From: Nitrospiraceae bacterium
GTDB lineage: Bacteria; Nitrospirota; Nitrospiria; Nitrospirales; Nitrospiraceae
Assembly: GCA_037442105.1 (NCBI GenBank)
Contig: JBBIQV010000029.1
Span: forward strand, 1 to 40,719
Reading direction: 5' to 3'
DNA length: 40,719 nt
Position numbers and translations under genes: made by a program. Below the pieces are notes generated by a model that worked only from the letters and a program-made list of their open reading frames with translations, was not told the origin of the DNA and did not search any database. Positions 1,618 through 23,078 of this stretch are shown here, piece after piece; within the stretch, counting starts at the first letter, position 1, and the number at the start of each line of letters is the position of its first letter.

Positions 1618-2067
1618 TCAGTCATCCCCGCTCCGGCCACCCTTTGCTCTTCCTGGCGCCTTGTTCTCATTTTCCAGGCTTGCCAGAATCGGACACTGTT
1701 CGGTGGGCTGACCCGCCCTGCAGGTGCGGATCAAGCGTTGCAGCGCCTTCGCTAGCGATTGCAAGTCGCGCACTTTGGCCTCAATGTGCTTCAGTTTGGC
1801 TTCTGCCCTTCGCTGCACATCCCGGCATCGCGCCTTTGAACTGATCCGCAGATCGAGGAGTTCTTCGATCTCATGGAGCGTGAAACCCAACCCTTGGGCG
1901 TTCTTGATGAGGCGTAGTCTTCTGTATGCTTCATCGCTGTACAACCGGTACCCAGACGGCTTTCGCGATGTCGGCGCCAGCAACTTCAGCCGCTCGTAGT
2001 ACCTGATTGTCTGGATATTCACGCCAACTTCTTTCGCAAGTTGCCCAATCGTTAATGCTGAGTCCAT
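1618..2067 (-). CDS. merR: Hg(II)-responsive MerR-family regulator
   Basis: TIGQLAKEVGVNIQTIRYYER HTH. Cys81/Cys116/Cys125 have the same spacing as the three Hg ligands of Tn501 MerR (82/117/126). Confidence 0.9.
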   Translation of the reverse strand: MDSALTIGQLAKEVGVNIQTIRYYERLKLLAPTSRKPSGYRLYSDEAYRRLRLIKNAQGLGFTLHEIEELLDLRISSKARCRDVQRRAEAKLKHIEAKVRDLQSLAKALQRLIRTCRAGQPTEQCPILASLENENKAPGRAKGGRSGDD

Positions 2068-18037: not shown

Positions 18038-19603
18038 TTACTTCGCATATTCCACGTACCGGCTCTCTCTGATCACCGTCACCTTGATTTGACCGGGGTA
18101 AGTCAACTCCTGTTCGATCTTCTTGGCGAGGTCTCGCGACAATTGGAAGGATTCCGTATCCGTGATATCTTCCTGCCTCACGATCACTCGAATTTCACGG
18201 CCTGCCTGAATGGCATAGGCCTTTTGAACTCCCCTGTAACCGGTCGCCAACGATTCTAACTTCTCCAGACGCTTGACGTACGATTCCAGCGCTTCCCGTC
18301 TAGCCCCAGGCCTCGCTGCCGACAATGCTTCCGCAGACGCGACCAGCACTGTTTCCGGACAGATGGGCTCCACCTGTTCATGGTGCGCGGCAATCGCATT
18401 CACTACTTTAGGATTCTCTCCGTACTTTTTGGCGATCTCGGCCCCCAACATGGCATGCGGGCCCTCTTCTTCGTGGCTGACCGCTTTGCCGATGTCATGC
18501 AGCAAGGCACCGCGCTTGGCCAGCTTCACATCCAGCCCCAGCTCCGACGCCATGATCCCACAGATGTACGCCGCTTCGCGCGCATGGTAGAGATTGTTCT
18601 GCCCGTAGCTCGTCCGATATTTGAGCCGTCCCAGGACCTTGACCAACTCCGGATGAAAATCGGACAGGCCTACCTCGAAAATGACTTTTTCCGCTTCTTC
18701 GATCATCAGCTTGTCGATATCCGCCTTGACCTTCTCGACGATCTCTTCAATCCGAGTCGGGTGGATCCGGCCATCGTGCATCAGCCGTTCGAGCGAGACC
18801 TTAGCAATCTCTCGACGCAAGGGATCGAATCCCGAAATGATAACGGCTTCCGGAGTCTCGTCTATGATGAGGTCGATCCCTGTGGCCGCTTCGATCGCCC
18901 GGATGTTACGCCCTTCCCGACCGATGATCCTTCCCTTCATCGCATCGTTCGGAATCGGCACGACGGAAATCGTGGCCTCCGACACGTAATCGCGAGTCAC
19001 TCGCTGGATCGAGCGCGCGATGATCTCGCGCGCTTCGCGCTCGGCGTTTTCCTTGGCCTCCTCCACTGTGCGCTTGGCGAGGCCGGCCGCTTCCAACCTC
19101 GCCTGGCTCTCCATCTCCAGCACTAACTGCTTTTTGGCCTCCTCCGCGGTCATCCCGGCGACTCGTTCCAGCGCCTCTCGATGCTCCCTGACGGCCTGAT
19201 CGCACGCAGCCTGCATACGCGACAGCCCCTCTTCCCGCCTGGCTAATTCCTGATCACGTTGCTGAGCCTCTTGTTCCCGCTTCTCTAAGCTCGTAAGCTT
19301 GCGATCCAGCAGATCTTCTCGCTGGGTCAGCCGCTTCTCGACGGCCGAGAGTTCGACAAGCTTGGCCTTCTGCTCCTTTTCAAGCTCTGTCTTGGCCTGG
19401 AAGACGAGATCTTTTGCCTCCAGCTTTGCTTCCTTGAGGAGATTCTCTGCCTCGCGTTGGGCGCTCAACACGAGTTGGCGCGCCTGTTCATCCACTTCCT
19501 GCCGTTTCGCCACCGAGGTCCGCCGGCGCACCAATTCAAAGACGCCGATGCCCACCAGTGCCCCGGCCACTCCGGCCAGAATATAGGCTAATACGCTGAA
19601 CAC
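18038..19603 (-). CDS. rny: Ribonuclease Y
   Basis: N-terminal TM, coiled coil, KH domain (MKGRIIGREGRNIR) and HD domain (LLHDIGK). GTG 19603 preferred. Confidence 0.96.
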   Translation of the reverse strand: MFSVLAYILAGVAGALVGIGVFELVRRRTSVAKRQEVDEQARQLVLSAQREAENLLKEAKLEAKDLVFQAKTELEKEQKAKLVELSAVEKRLTQREDLLDRKLTSLEKREQEAQQRDQELARREEGLSRMQAACDQAVREHREALERVAGMTAEEAKKQLVLEMESQARLEAAGLAKRTVEEAKENAEREAREIIARSIQRVTRDYVSEATISVVPIPNDAMKGRIIGREGRNIRAIEAATGIDLIIDETPEAVIISGFDPLRREIAKVSLERLMHDGRIHPTRIEEIVEKVKADIDKLMIEEAEKVIFEVGLSDFHPELVKVLGRLKYRTSYGQNNLYHAREAAYICGIMASELGLDVKLAKRGALLHDIGKAVSHEEEGPHAMLGAEIAKKYGENPKVVNAIAAHHEQVEPICPETVLVASAEALSAARPGARREALESYVKRLEKLESLATGYRGVQKAYAIQAGREIRVIVRQEDITDTESFQLSRDLAKKIEQELTYPGQIKVTVIRESRYVEYAK

Positions 19604-19668
19604 AATACCCCTCACCCCCTTTGGTGGCCAAAGGACGCGCGTCGGCTCTCGTCGCAATCGGACATTTT

Positions 19669-20122
19669 AATGTAATGTGAGTACGGTGTACCGGTAGGAA
19701 GAGTAGTTGCTATCGGGAACGGGAAGGAAATCAGAATGGTTGGACGTCGAACGCTCTTACCCCGAACATTGGCCGAGACTGGCCAGAACCGGAGGTCGTC
19801 CTCGCGCAGGAATGGTCAACTGCCCAGTTGGCTGTCGCAGGCCCCTCCTCACGATGCACACCGGATCGGCGGTAACGGCCAAATCCCCTAATGTGCACGG
19901 ACTCTCTTCCTCTTGTCGAACCGAGCTTCCTCTATCTATACCGCAAGAGGTTATTACGTGTTCGACCACTTTGGCCATCACCCCGAACAACATTCGCACT
20001 ATCACGGCAAAGAGCATCGATACTTCCACATTCAACACAGCGACAACGCTGTTCGTCATTCTGATCTCGAAACCGTTTCTTCTTCCAATACCTTTTCCGG
20101 TTTATCGCGCACTCATCTACTT
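19669..20122 (-). ncRNA. Large structured non-coding RNA (~450 nt) at the syntenic 6S RNA (ssrS) position; identity as 6S uncertain
   Basis: Nested long-range helices 20108-20115/19678-19685, 20057-20068/19727-19738, 20006-20020/19747-19761, 19970-19985/19867-19883 and 19944-19950/19909-19915. Own sigma70 promoter. zapA-[ ]-rny synteny. No credible ORF. Confidence 0.65.
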
Positions 20123-20128
20123 AAGGGC

Positions 20129-20157
20129 ACGATAACAAAGCCCCGCCTTGATTGCAA
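20129..20157 (-). promoter_or_regulatory. Sigma70-type promoter for the structured RNA
   Basis: TTGCAA - 17 bp - TATCGT with an extended -10 TG. The predicted +1 (~20122) coincides with the 5' strand of the closing helix. Confidence 0.65.
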
Positions 20158-20165
20158 GGCGATTC

Positions 20166-20462
20166 TCATCTGAGAACCGAGGGCGGCATTTGCTCCTCGA
20201 TCGATTCCATCAACGACATCATACGCCGCTCGACGTCCGCTTCGCCCTGTTGTCGCCTCTTTTCGGCCTCAAGAAGCTGATGCGCGAGATTGATGCAGGT
20301 CAGCACCGCCAGTTTCGATAGCGTGGCGGTCTTCATTCCCTGCGCCAACCCACGCATATGCTCATCAATGAAATGCGCCAACTGACGCACATAGACTTCA
20401 TCAGCCTCTCCGCGGATGTTGTACTTCTGGCCATAGATTTCCACTTCGATGGTCTTAGTCAA
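20166..20462 (-). CDS. zapA: Cell division protein ZapA
   Basis: IEVEIYGQKYNIRG...KLAVLTCINLAHQL. TTG 20462 follows GGAGG and overlaps the upstream gene. Confidence 0.92.
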   Translation of the reverse strand: MTKTIEVEIYGQKYNIRGEADEVYVRQLAHFIDEHMRGLAQGMKTATLSKLAVLTCINLAHQLLEAEKRRQQGEADVERRMMSLMESIEEQMPPSVLR

Positions 20463-20709
20463 GCGCCACCTCCTTGGATTCATCCAGGCACTCGATCACT
20501 TCCATCTCGCCCAACACCTTTTCGATGCGTGACTTGATGTCGCTTCGCTCGCGCTCCCACCGGCGATTTGCATCGTCTTGCGCCGCAAGACGCTGGCGCG
20601 CAGCGCGCAACTCTTCCTCCAACGTCGCGTTCGTGCGCTTCAATTCCTGCACCAATCTCACCAATTCCCGAATGCGGGCCTCAAGAGCGTCCAAACGATC
20701 GATGGTCAT
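20455..20709 (-). CDS. zapB: ZapB-like coiled-coil cell division protein
   Basis: Short pure coiled coil (LDALEARIRELVRLVQELKRTN) directly upstream of zapA. Confidence 0.8.
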   Translation of the reverse strand: MTIDRLDALEARIRELVRLVQELKRTNATLEEELRAARQRLAAQDDANRRWERERSDIKSRIEKVLGEMEVIECLDESKEVALD

Positions 20710-20747
20710 GACTCTGGCTCCTCATCAGCCACGACGGATTGTGGCGC

Positions 20748-20776
20748 ACTATAGAAACTTCACTACATCTTGTCAA
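20748..20776 (-). promoter_or_regulatory. Sigma70 promoter of zapB-zapA
   Basis: TTGACA - 17 bp - TATAGT. Confidence 0.7.
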
Positions 20777-20786
20777 GAAACGAAGA

Positions 20787-23078
20787 TCACGAGGCAGGTT
20801 CGCCGAGACGAATGTATTCGCGATAGCTCCGGAGCACACGTTTCACGTACTGCCGAGTTTCCTGATAGGGGATCAACTCCACGAATTCATCAGATTCACG
20901 TCCAAGATTCATCGCCATCCATTTTTGGACCACCACAGGCCCCGCATTATAGGCACTCACTGCCGCAATGATATTGCCGGAGAATTGTTCCAACAATTCG
21001 TCGAGATAGCGCACGCCGATTCGGATATTGGTCTCTTGATCGAAGAGATCATCCCGTCCCACCTCTGGAAGCCCCCAGCGATAAGCCACTGCGCTGGCGG
21101 TCGTCGGCATGAGCTGCATAAGGCCGATAGCTCCGACGCGGGACACCGCGCGTCCGTCGTACTGGCTTTCTTCCCGTATGATCGCCGCAGCAAGGTAAGG
21201 ATCAACCCGCTTCACACCTTGCGCGCGGATAGCAGGCAAGAGGCCGGAGGGATAGGCCACGCCCCAGAGGGAAGAAGCCACCGGGCCTCCGCTCCGCTCG
21301 AGTTTCTCACGAAAATGGAGCCTGGCCAAACGCAGGCCTTGATGGTGAGATCCAACTTCGTTCAGCAGGATCGAAAGGGTAAGCATCACTTCCTGGTCAC
21401 GACCGTACCGCTCGGTTAGGACTGCCAGCTCGCGAGCCGCATCCTGATCCAGCCCGAGAATCTTCAACTCGATGGCCCGCTGGTACGCCGGTTCACGTTC
21501 GACCCCTCGGCGTTTGTCCAGCGGAAGCGCATACATCTCTTCCTGCTCACCATTGACCACGGCGCCGAGGGGCGGAGGAAGATCCGCGCGCTGGCGGCTG
21601 AGCTGGCAGTAGTAGGTGTAGACATAGCGCTGGCAGACGCGACTATAGAAGTCCTTGGCCTTGTCACGACTCGATCGTTCCGTTGCGCGGCCCATCCAAT
21701 AGAGTGCCTGGGGTTCCCACTCGCCATCCTTAAGGTCCACCACATCCTGGAAGGTTGCGATCGCCTCGCGATACCGATTCGTGCGGTACTGAACCCATCC
21801 GACCCGCCAGAGCGCCTCAAGCCTTTGTGCCGCAGGGACTCCGGAATTGGCAATCTGCCGGAAACGGGAGATCGCTTCTTCGAACCTGTGTTCATCTTCA
21901 AGCCAGATACCGGCGAAGAGTTGCACCGTCGCTCGCTGCTCAGCCTTGAGCGTCTTTCCGGTGGACCTGGCTAGATCGAGCAGCTTGTCTCCCTGTCCCT
22001 GCCGCAGATAGACGCGCGCCAGCCACACCGTCGCCTCGTCGGACTCGGAGCCCCCATCCGCGATCAGTTCTCGAAACGTGTCTCGGGCCTGGTCATAGGC
22101 CTTGAGCCGCACGAGGGAGACTCCCAACCGAAGTCTCGCCTCCGAACGACGCGCATGATGCGGGGCCACGGCGAGAAATTTCCGCAACTCTTCGATTGCT
22201 TCCGCATGCAAGGCAAGTCCTAAGTAGGCTTGGGCTCGCGCATAGCGGTCGTCGGGGGACGGCGTCCACGCCTCTCCCCCAAGATTTCCGCTGAGTCGAC
22301 TCTCTGCCTCCCGCGCTTCAAGACTATTCGGGTATCGGATCCAGATCTGCTTGAGGAAGACGCTGCCTTCCGCATACCGCCCTTCACGCTGGTAGCACTC
22401 ATTGAGGCGCATCAGGGCCGAGGGAGCCGAGGGGTCCCTGTCGTTTAGCATGGTCGCTTGGCTCAGCCATTGTGCAGCCCGTATGCAGTCATCGGCCTGA
22501 AACCACGCCTCCCCAGCCCGATACGCTATCCGAACCGACAAATTTGTGTCGGGCACGACCTGGGGGACAGACTCGAACATGGCTGCCGCTTGTGCGGTAT
22601 TGCCCTGTTTCAAGAGCGCTTCCCCCAGCCAGAACCGCACATAATCCTCCAGCACCGGAAAATCGCGCTGCGCCGATCGGAGAAACCTAACCGCCACGGC
22701 AGGATCATGCTCCACCAACAGCACGCCGGAGAGCAGGCCCGCGCGTTTGGCCCATAAAGACGCGGGCTGCCGTTCCATCACGAGATGGAGCCGGTCGAGC
22801 TTGGCGGCCAGTTGTCGTTCACGTTCTGCCGAAGTCGTTGGCTTCTGTTCTCTTATGGCAACCGCCGCACGGAAACACTCTTCGGCTGTTTCGCACGATA
22901 AGGAAGCGACGGAGTCGGCCAGGTCAGGCTCGGCCGCCAAAGACGCCGTGGTGAAAAAACAAAGACATAGAGCGAGAAGTCCTCCTAACATCATCATCAG
23001 AATGCGAAGAGGCAGGTAGCACGATGAGACCATGGCGTTGGTGGGGGTGAGAGACGGCATGGCGTTGCAAATTACCAT
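20787..23078 (-). CDS. Soluble lytic murein transglycosylase with TPR repeats (Slt-like)
   Basis: TPR array, then SLT motifs AIIREES, GAIGLMQLMP and AYNAG. Start uncertain; the signal-like segment begins near MMMLGGLL. Confidence 0.9.
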   Translation of the reverse strand: MVICNAMPSLTPTNAMVSSCYLPLRILMMMLGGLLALCLCFFTTASLAAEPDLADSVASLSCETAEECFRAAVAIREQKPTTSAERERQLAAKLDRLHLVMERQPASLWAKRAGLLSGVLLVEHDPAVAVRFLRSAQRDFPVLEDYVRFWLGEALLKQGNTAQAAAMFESVPQVVPDTNLSVRIAYRAGEAWFQADDCIRAAQWLSQATMLNDRDPSAPSALMRLNECYQREGRYAEGSVFLKQIWIRYPNSLEAREAESRLSGNLGGEAWTPSPDDRYARAQAYLGLALHAEAIEELRKFLAVAPHHARRSEARLRLGVSLVRLKAYDQARDTFRELIADGGSESDEATVWLARVYLRQGQGDKLLDLARSTGKTLKAEQRATVQLFAGIWLEDEHRFEEAISRFRQIANSGVPAAQRLEALWRVGWVQYRTNRYREAIATFQDVVDLKDGEWEPQALYWMGRATERSSRDKAKDFYSRVCQRYVYTYYCQLSRQRADLPPPLGAVVNGEQEEMYALPLDKRRGVEREPAYQRAIELKILGLDQDAARELAVLTERYGRDQEVMLTLSILLNEVGSHHQGLRLARLHFREKLERSGGPVASSLWGVAYPSGLLPAIRAQGVKRVDPYLAAAIIREESQYDGRAVSRVGAIGLMQLMPTTASAVAYRWGLPEVGRDDLFDQETNIRIGVRYLDELLEQFSGNIIAAVSAYNAGPVVVQKWMAMNLGRESDEFVELIPYQETRQYVKRVLRSYREYIRLGEPAS

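Follow-up and report, generated by a model that had tools for sequence, protein, structure and literature searches.

A candidate uORF-containing leader of the rny operon in the 6S RNA slot of Nitrospiraceae

The 6S RNA gene ssrS commonly lies downstream of zapA and upstream of rny, and canonical 6S RNAs are simple rods of roughly 160–200 nt. In a contig of a Nitrospiraceae bacterium (assembly GCA_037442105.1, JBBIQV010000029.1; the window, meaning the whole 40,719-nt stretch that was analyzed), this slot is filled by a 489-nt stretch (19669–20157, minus strand) with zapA on one side and rny on the other, and the gene order zapB-zapA-[slot]-rny-ymdB-xseA was supported by Pfam and NCBIfam searches. 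This raises the question of what the element is. An initial annotation had described an end-paired, multidomain RNA of about 450 nt and offered two identities for it, a giant 6S variant or precursor and a different large noncoding RNA (ncRNA). Our best reading, to which we assign a probability of about 0.5, is a cis leader that contains a uORF, belongs to the (rarA-)rny-ymdB operon, and has an arrest-peptide-like layout; it would act via termination or decay and not by unmasking the rny SD.

The giant 6S identity was not borne out. An Rfam search of positions 18500–21500 of the window returned no RF00013 match at E ≤ 10, the slots of 10 family loci and of L175–L184 gave no match to this model either, and the 6S apical motifs (GUGUGCA-GCC and GGAAGCCUAA) were present in 0 of 168 leaders. 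The 6S norm is a noncoding rod of ~160–200 nt with a central bubble, whereas the element is a ~450-nt rod that encloses an ORF. Its likeness to 6S RNA (RF00013) lies in the slot after zapA, the promoter position, and a rod with internal loops; it differs in being three times longer, coding, and devoid of 6S motifs, with the true 6S lying elsewhere or just upstream. The genomic position after zapA had been recognized correctly, but its occupant is not 6S. A giant 6S or 6S variant that would bind σ70–RNA polymerase, as first proposed, could draw on the ssrS slot, apparently on the ssrS promoter too, and on the purine-rich internal loops of the rod; given the search results, the genuine 6S found elsewhere, and the outgroups in which 6S and the element are separate neighbors, it is very improbable. 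RNase P RNA, tmRNA, and other large ncRNAs of Rfam were also rejected as candidates, with no Rfam match in the slot; the RNase P RNA gene (G000:C34, 279.8 bits) and one tmRNA gene of the same genome are located elsewhere.

A separate 6S-like gene of ~160 nt, with its own promoter and U-tract, was found at G000:C13:14223–14387 (L005:1501–1665) and scored 35.4 bits against a cut-off of 46.4. A 6S-like match was obtained in 29 of the 36 family genomes, and the cut-off was exceeded in 5 of all 61 genomes. None of the 30 family 6S-like loci had zapA or rny within the flanks examined, and their closing stems (16 listed of 30) were varied but paired. The location of 6S in Nitrospiraceae is corrected by these loci: the family 6S (e.g., L112–L140) is a stand-alone gene of ~150–165 nt away from zapA, mostly below the Rfam cut-off. 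Two copies were seen in a few family genomes. In family f2, no RF00013 match was obtained in 10 genomes, nor in 22 under a strict E value.

All helix and promoter sequences named in the initial annotation were found at their positions on the minus strand. The hexamers of the proposed promoter (TTGCAA-17-TATCGT) are in place and, by eye, form the most conserved part of the family alignment, but the promoter is absent from the list of a consensus scanner (0 found). Judged by eye, the site is the ssrS promoter site of the outgroups, and it has the same position before 6S in L144. The promoter position puts the predicted +1 near 20122. RNAfold gave −175 kcal/mol for the element (z = −2.44), and 0 of 100 shuffles folded as well. 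Eight of the 11 helices drawn in the initial annotation, including all four outer ones, had mean pair probabilities of 0.86–1.00, whereas three local or nested helices were unsupported as drawn, namely CCUCUUG/CAAGAGG (0.05), CAACU/AGUUG (0.00), and GAGG/CCUC (0.01). The argument that G-U pairs indicate RNA-level selection proved weak: the sense strand outfolded the antisense strand in 45 of 47 representatives, an advantage that would be expected from G-rich composition alone. The rod amounts to about 60 bp in short helices, closes around the ORF, and pairs over its start. By pair probabilities, the 3′ arm engages the first AUG of the ORF and the stop region engages an internal one (Table 1). 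This start/stop helix recurs in alignments A2 and A3 and in the outgroup family f8, and in all 32 representatives that were tested (real sequences only), at least eight long-range pairs were expected for the stop region.

Table 1. Positions of the element and its neighbors in the window
Feature	Position	Strand	Remarks
zapA	20166..20483	−	upstream gene; Pfam ZapA E = 1.6e-18
rny (RNase Y)	18038..19606	−	first downstream gene; Pfam RNase_Y_N, KH_1, HD
Predicted σ70-type promoter	20129..20157	−	−35 TTGCAA 20157–20152; −10 TATCGT 20134–20129
5′ arm, purine-rich; one strand of the long interrupted rod	20057..20122	−	pair probabilities 0.88–1.00; ends in the uORF start region
uORF, 100 codons	19757..20059	−	AUG 20059; alternative starts GUG 20038, AUG 20017
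Arg-Gly-Arg-Pro codons	19793..19804	−	the family's only conserved peptide motif
Stop-codon region	19747..19761	−	pairs with 20020–20006 (AUG 20017); mean pair probability 0.87
3′ arm, pyrimidine-rich, C>G	19669..19746	−	19738–19727 pairs over AUG 20059, probability 1.00
rny initiation region	19604..19634	−	SD AAGGGGGUGA 19621–19612, then AUU 19606 / GUG 19603

The conservation of the rod was analyzed in relatives. From 195 loci, 186 leaders were obtained (nine had no SD call or rny was out of reach), of which 166 were distinct; restoring two dropped leaders by hand and removing the three from f2 left 165 family leaders, which blastn grouped into 44 clusters, and these clusters plus the three f2 leaders gave 47 representatives. 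The rny gene lay behind zapA in 105 of 106 loci, duplicates counted, and the zapA–rny spacing was 499–629 nt in 104 of 105. In L102, the spacer is 778 nt, with additional DNA ahead of the promoter. A DNA search of 61 genomes found the element in only one same-genus genome, together with two promoter-only matches, and metagenome scans returned no relative and 14 chance pattern matches. The window element is ~39% identical to most relatives, and the MFE z scores were modest (median −1.2 over the 47 unalignable representatives). Pairs spanning at least 250 nt numbered a median of 61 in these representatives versus 22 in shuffles, and long-range pairs exceeded the best of eight shuffles in 34 of the 47. 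The purine fraction of the 5′ arm was higher than that of the 3′ arm in 47 of 47, and the median C/G ratio of the 3′ arm was 1.6. To separate pairing from composition, every 5′ arm was paired with every 3′ arm in an arm-swap test. The cognate arm came first in 13 of 47 representatives (1 expected by chance) and was one of the best three in 26 (3 expected by chance); the window's own arm ranked second, and the three f2 leaders gave no such signal. Compared with the nearest relative, 36 of the window's 62 long-range pairs were kept, 9 were changed on one side, 3 on both sides, and 14 were broken. A covariation check with RNAalifold on two clusters gave weak support: it recovered the start/stop helices, but the outer rod only in part, and the covariation terms were small (−0.89 and −2.27). 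No sequence motif was shared in the long-range helices across 69 elements. Therefore, from the length, arm-swap, pair-change, and motif results, the shape and length of the rod are selected, and its sequence is not. A neutral spacer, in which base-composition asymmetry is combined with a chance open frame, would fit the low identity, the modest z scores, the 14 broken pairs, and the antisense frames that are open too; against the constant spacing, the ranks of the cognate arms, the RGRP excess, and the high expression described below, it is highly improbable.

The nested domains of the fold are filled by a 100-codon ORF that the initial annotation had missed. The encoded peptide consists of an N-terminal hydrophobic helix, a variable spacer, and an RGRP motif near the C-terminus. 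An ORF lies at the same place in most relatives, with the frame open over at least 200 of nt 100–340 in 141 of 165 leaders. Open frames are weak evidence, as they were found in 35 of 44 clusters in sense and 31 in antisense (19.8 expected), and the longest-ORF length did not separate the two strands (109.5 versus 108.5 codons). RGRP with at least 60 upstream open codons occurred in 17 of 44 clusters versus 0.16 expected, and in 24 chosen sequences, R-x-R was invariant and G and P reached at least 90%. The sequence GGNCGNCC was present at nt 290–355 in 18 clusters; in all 18, the longest open frame was that of G-R-P (median 94 codons versus 34 and 29), and every third position varied. Indels that were a multiple of three made up 23 of 54 inside the ORF versus 12 of 211 outside, and dN/dS was 0.63 in the ORF frame versus 0.85 and 0.94 in the other frames, a comparison that favors the ORF frame because it was picked as open. 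The other 31 of the 54 indels inside the ORF were frameshifting, the ≥60-codon test left 27 of 44 clusters, the four largest among them, without RGRP, and two clusters often broke the uORF frame (open in 12 of 21 and 2 of 8). RNA-level constraint also acts on the RGRP site, since GGNCGNCC is a palindrome, CGC is avoided at the second Arg (used in 0 of 18), and one cluster shows hairpin-loop changes that alter the peptide. A conserved GG-NCGN-CC hairpin was rejected as the cause of RGRP; its stem extends by at least 2 bp in 7 of 18 clusters, and its probability in the window is 0.01.

The KD17 value of the window uORF was 2.47, and a KD17 window of at least 1.5 was found in only 15 of 35 open clusters. 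The AF2 model showed one helix at residues 2–40, with low confidence for the rest; on this model, the peptide is a hydrophobic N-terminal helix with an unfolded tail. The peptides span 80–110 aa across the family, independent members with less than 50% identity keep both ends, and the length is near constant (83–90 aa) in one lineage. The uORF is annotated as hypothetical in some Nitrospira (WHZ24443.1, SLM45237.1, and NITMOv2_4171). A single-sequence protein search with the uORF peptide found only itself, Pfam and NCBIfam contained no family for it, and the ESM Atlas returned nothing at ≥0.9. An HMM search of 1.84 billion representatives, in a library without taxonomy, gave 22 matches, all of which resembled the seed lineages, so the search gave no sign of the peptide beyond the family. 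The Nitrospira moscoviensis uORF (L043:1903–2238) ends in ...RRAGPVPEFLS with a SecM-type RAGP that its cluster mates do not keep; judged from these sequences, this RAGP is probably due to chance. A different large ncRNA, the second identity offered at the outset, is less probable: many lineages show signs of protein-level selection on the ORF in this RNA, which makes a coding leader the better reading.

The transcript has been recorded in N. moscoviensis. In Table S1 of PMC8407350, NITMOv2_4171 has an RPKM of 2144 ± 793 and ranks 52 of ~4790, and the same table gives 386 for rny, 374 for ymdB, and 243 for zapA; the RNA of the leader ORF is accordingly 5.6-fold above that of rny. In the published tables of this study, a TMH is predicted for NITMOv2_4171, and its peptide was undetected in the whole-cell proteome and in five membrane digests, whereas the proteome lists 36 for RNase Y, 13 for ZapA, and 9 for YmdB (PMC8407350). 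The missing-peptide result is soft, because the proteome covered 53% of proteins (PMC8407350) and small Arg-rich peptides may easily be missed. The table of PMC6606698 has no row for the leader ORF. The leader on L043 is covered by RNA contigs from four runs of one study, whose independence from the published table is uncertain. Two of the contigs begin at 1869, a position 5 nt away from the predicted +1, and in two of the four runs a contig stops near the 3′ edge of the rod, although contigs cannot show ends or levels; one contig (X1, 2264–2743 on L043), which may hold DNA, bridges the 3′ end of the rod into rny. The initial claim of an end-paired ~450-nt RNA under RNA-level selection, made from this predicted promoter, was right, and in the published RNA-seq table of this relative it accumulates well above rny.

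The abundance of the RNA without a detected peptide would also suit a structural or trans-acting ncRNA, or a protective or processing stem inherited from an ancestral 6S-precursor transcript, with the ORF being secondary and tolerated. The rod predates every individual uORF and has a wider distribution, its arms co-evolve in the arm-swap test, and the contigs ending near its 3′ edge (two of four runs of one study) point weakly in the same direction. Known large ncRNAs have conserved sequence motifs in their long-range helices, and the element has none; the frame-specific RGRP signal, the excess of in-frame indels, and the independent TM and xxPP uORFs of f8 argue further against this alternative, which we regard as rather doubtful.

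The outgroups place the element beside 6S. Among the 40 outgroup loci scanned (60 fetched), canonical 6S followed zapA in 13. Behind it lies a 340–600-nt end-paired element of similar build and then a RarA-like ATPase gene or rny; in 20 loci, the first gene after the element was rarA in 17 and rny in 2, and 1 was too short. In outgroup families (L261–L280), the RarA-like AAA ATPase gene separates the element from rny, and by eye it often begins with a weak UUG codon. Two sampled outgroup families have only 40–110 nt behind 6S and lack the element, and in f2 and several outgroup families the rod is present without a conserved uORF. The simplest history would have 6S depart from the slot within this order, with the old promoter retained by the element. 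In f8, a hydrophobic-start uORF was found in each of the 12 loci, which come from 11 genomes, some of them closely related, with the endings HGPP (7, plus 1 frameshifted), DGPP, GAPP (2), and VSPP. These uORFs could not be aligned to the RGRP peptides, and the likeness observed is one of layout. They are unannotated ORFs of 66–115 codons directly after 6S (L295–L306), and the motifs stand 12–30 codons before the stop. HGPP is a query motif for RAPP-like arrest peptides in PMC10987492, and on sequence grounds the f8 ORFs are good candidates for such peptides upstream of rarA-rny. In L299, L300, and L305 of f8, zapA was not found upstream of 6S within the flank examined, and L313 carries a c-di-GMP-I riboswitch (1870–1971, plus strand; 45.8 bits, above the cut-off) upstream of and opposite to the 6S gene.

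An SD-spacing heuristic called AUU as the rny start in 122 of 166 leaders, and examples are found in the window (19606–19604), at L043:2359–2361, and in L144, L149, and L269. A very strong SD precedes the AUU start, also in outgroups with rny as the first gene, and it often sits in a mini-hairpin with CCC immediately 5′ of AUU; the mini-hairpin was seen in alignments A2 and A3, and in the window a local hairpin CCUUUGG/CCAAAGG covers the beginning of the SD AAGGGGGUGA. These heuristic calls suggest that the rny start codons in Nitrospiraceae are AUU, and a literature search for an AUU start of rny found no paper. The rny SD lies ~135 nt beyond the uORF stop. A SecM-type SD switch was rejected, since in equilibrium folding of one sequence the rny SD was unpaired with a probability of 0.25 with or without a ribosome footprint at RGRP. 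No intrinsic terminator was found before rny in the window, and a terminator-like site was found in 1 of 44 leaders (0.8 expected).

The element always lies upstream of the gene that opens the operon (rny or the RarA-like ATPase gene), hardly any terminators intervene, an RNA contig runs into rny, and the RPKM of the leader exceeds that of rny. These observations argue for a cis leader, and the RGRP excess, the frame-specific signal, the in-frame indels, and the xxPP uORFs of f8 argue for a role of the uORF in it. We infer promoter use, translation, pausing, and the action of Rho or RNase Y, which would combine as follows. The uORF start would be more open only before the 3′ arm is transcribed, as suggested by its unpaired probability, 0.56 when the transcript ends at the stop and 0.20 in the full leader, and only one or a few pioneer ribosomes would translate it. 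Through its hydrophobic helix, the complex would be brought to the membrane, the site of RNase Y, and the ribosome would pause near RGRP. The duration of the pause would decide rod closure and read-through into rny; the alternative fates would be termination (C-rich arm, Rho-like) or a cut by RNase Y, leaving a stable rod of ~430–450 nt. The likely purpose would be to keep RNase Y low or under feedback.

Several known systems share parts of this layout. The tnaC-type attenuators have a Rho site after the uORF. They resemble the element in the uORF, the C-rich spacer, the first gene, and a leader RNA more abundant than the downstream RNA, whereas the C-rich arm of the element is paired with the 5′ end, no ligand is known for it, and Rho action is our proposal. 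The E. coli genes rne and pnp have autoregulatory ribonuclease leaders. RNase Y of B. subtilis autoregulates by cutting its own 5′ UTR, as described in PMC10303841, which speaks for the leader reading; this UTR, too, precedes a gene for a decay nuclease and is a place at which stability could be controlled. The element differs in being about 500 nt long and one closed rod with a uORF.

The arrest peptides (SecM, MifM, ApcA/ApdA/ApdP, and the RAPP/RGPP uORFs; as presented in PMC10987492 and PMC12992588) are close in design, with a uORF of ~80–110 codons upstream of a co-transcribed gene, a putative N-terminal localization-type segment, a variable spacer, and an Arg/Pro motif near the C-terminus, to which the HGPP/GAPP endings of f8 conform. 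As in RAPP-like systems, the uORF appears to be co-transcribed upstream of its target, with no terminator between them and one bridging contig as a weak indication. RGRP takes the place of the C-terminal RAPP/RGPP/HGPP/RAGP-type motif, which was found only in f8; in silico, a stalled ribosome did not open an SD stem, and the downstream SD is far away. A further difference is that the start of the element's uORF is locked by a long end-to-end rod. The terms rny, RarA, RGRP, and HGPP had no match in 10 of the 11 supplements of PMC12992588, and RGRP had 0 occurrences in the main texts of PMC12992588 and PMC10987492 and is not among the RAPP-like motifs listed there. In 1709 long ORFs of this genome, RGRP was not clearly depleted (12 seen versus 17 expected), and RAPP (3) and RGPP (0) were scarce.

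The occluded start also recalls type I toxin mRNAs (aapA, hok, and others), for which PMC8594479 describes 5′–3′ long-distance pairing as a key determinant. The element could accordingly be an independent mRNA that encodes a small membrane peptide and silences itself: 5′–3′ pairing would hide its start until processing frees it, and rny would be a mere neighbor in the transcript. The 3′ sequences that cover the start of a small hydrophobic ORF, the N-terminal hydrophobic helix, and the abundant RNA with an undetected peptide in the published proteome are as such an mRNA would have them. However, a crude pattern scan of the antisense strand found promoter-like motifs in 5 of 44 clusters (8.4 expected) and 0 terminators, sense terminators were no more frequent than expected, and the transcript appears to continue into housekeeping genes. 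The peptides, at 80–110 aa versus the 20–60 aa given for type I toxins in PMC8594479, are about twice as long. The element is also a single copy at a fixed housekeeping locus, most of its peptide is weakly constrained, and several lineages have lost the ORF and retained the rod. We therefore consider a toxin-like mRNA unlikely and favor the cis leader.

By defining features, the element is not 6S, a RAPP-type arrest peptide, or a type I toxin–antitoxin system, and it is a variant among uORF leaders; no description of it was found in the literature searched, which mostly excluded subscription journals. Going further, we tentatively consider, at well under even odds, a membrane-tethering leader class. 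In such a class, a one-shot uORF, locked by pairing between its start and its own stop region, would use its TM helix and an RGRP pause (RGRP being a new context-dependent arrest motif) to bring the nascent rny mRNA to the membrane, where membrane-bound RNase Y would pick between read-through and the stable ~450-nt rod. The same rod would have bred the HGPP/GAPP uORFs in another family and would be phylum-wide, staying in place when 6S moved away.

The element accounts for a transcript of N. moscoviensis that is annotated as "hypothetical" and is among the most abundant of that kind. Bulk mRNA decay is set by RNase Y, an enzyme whose control has been described mainly in B. subtilis. If our reading is true, an arrest-peptide-like uORF in a self-closing 450-nt leader would be a new form of regulation of a decay nuclease, uORF control would extend beyond sec/yidC and metal-uptake targets, and RGRP would be a candidate new pause motif.
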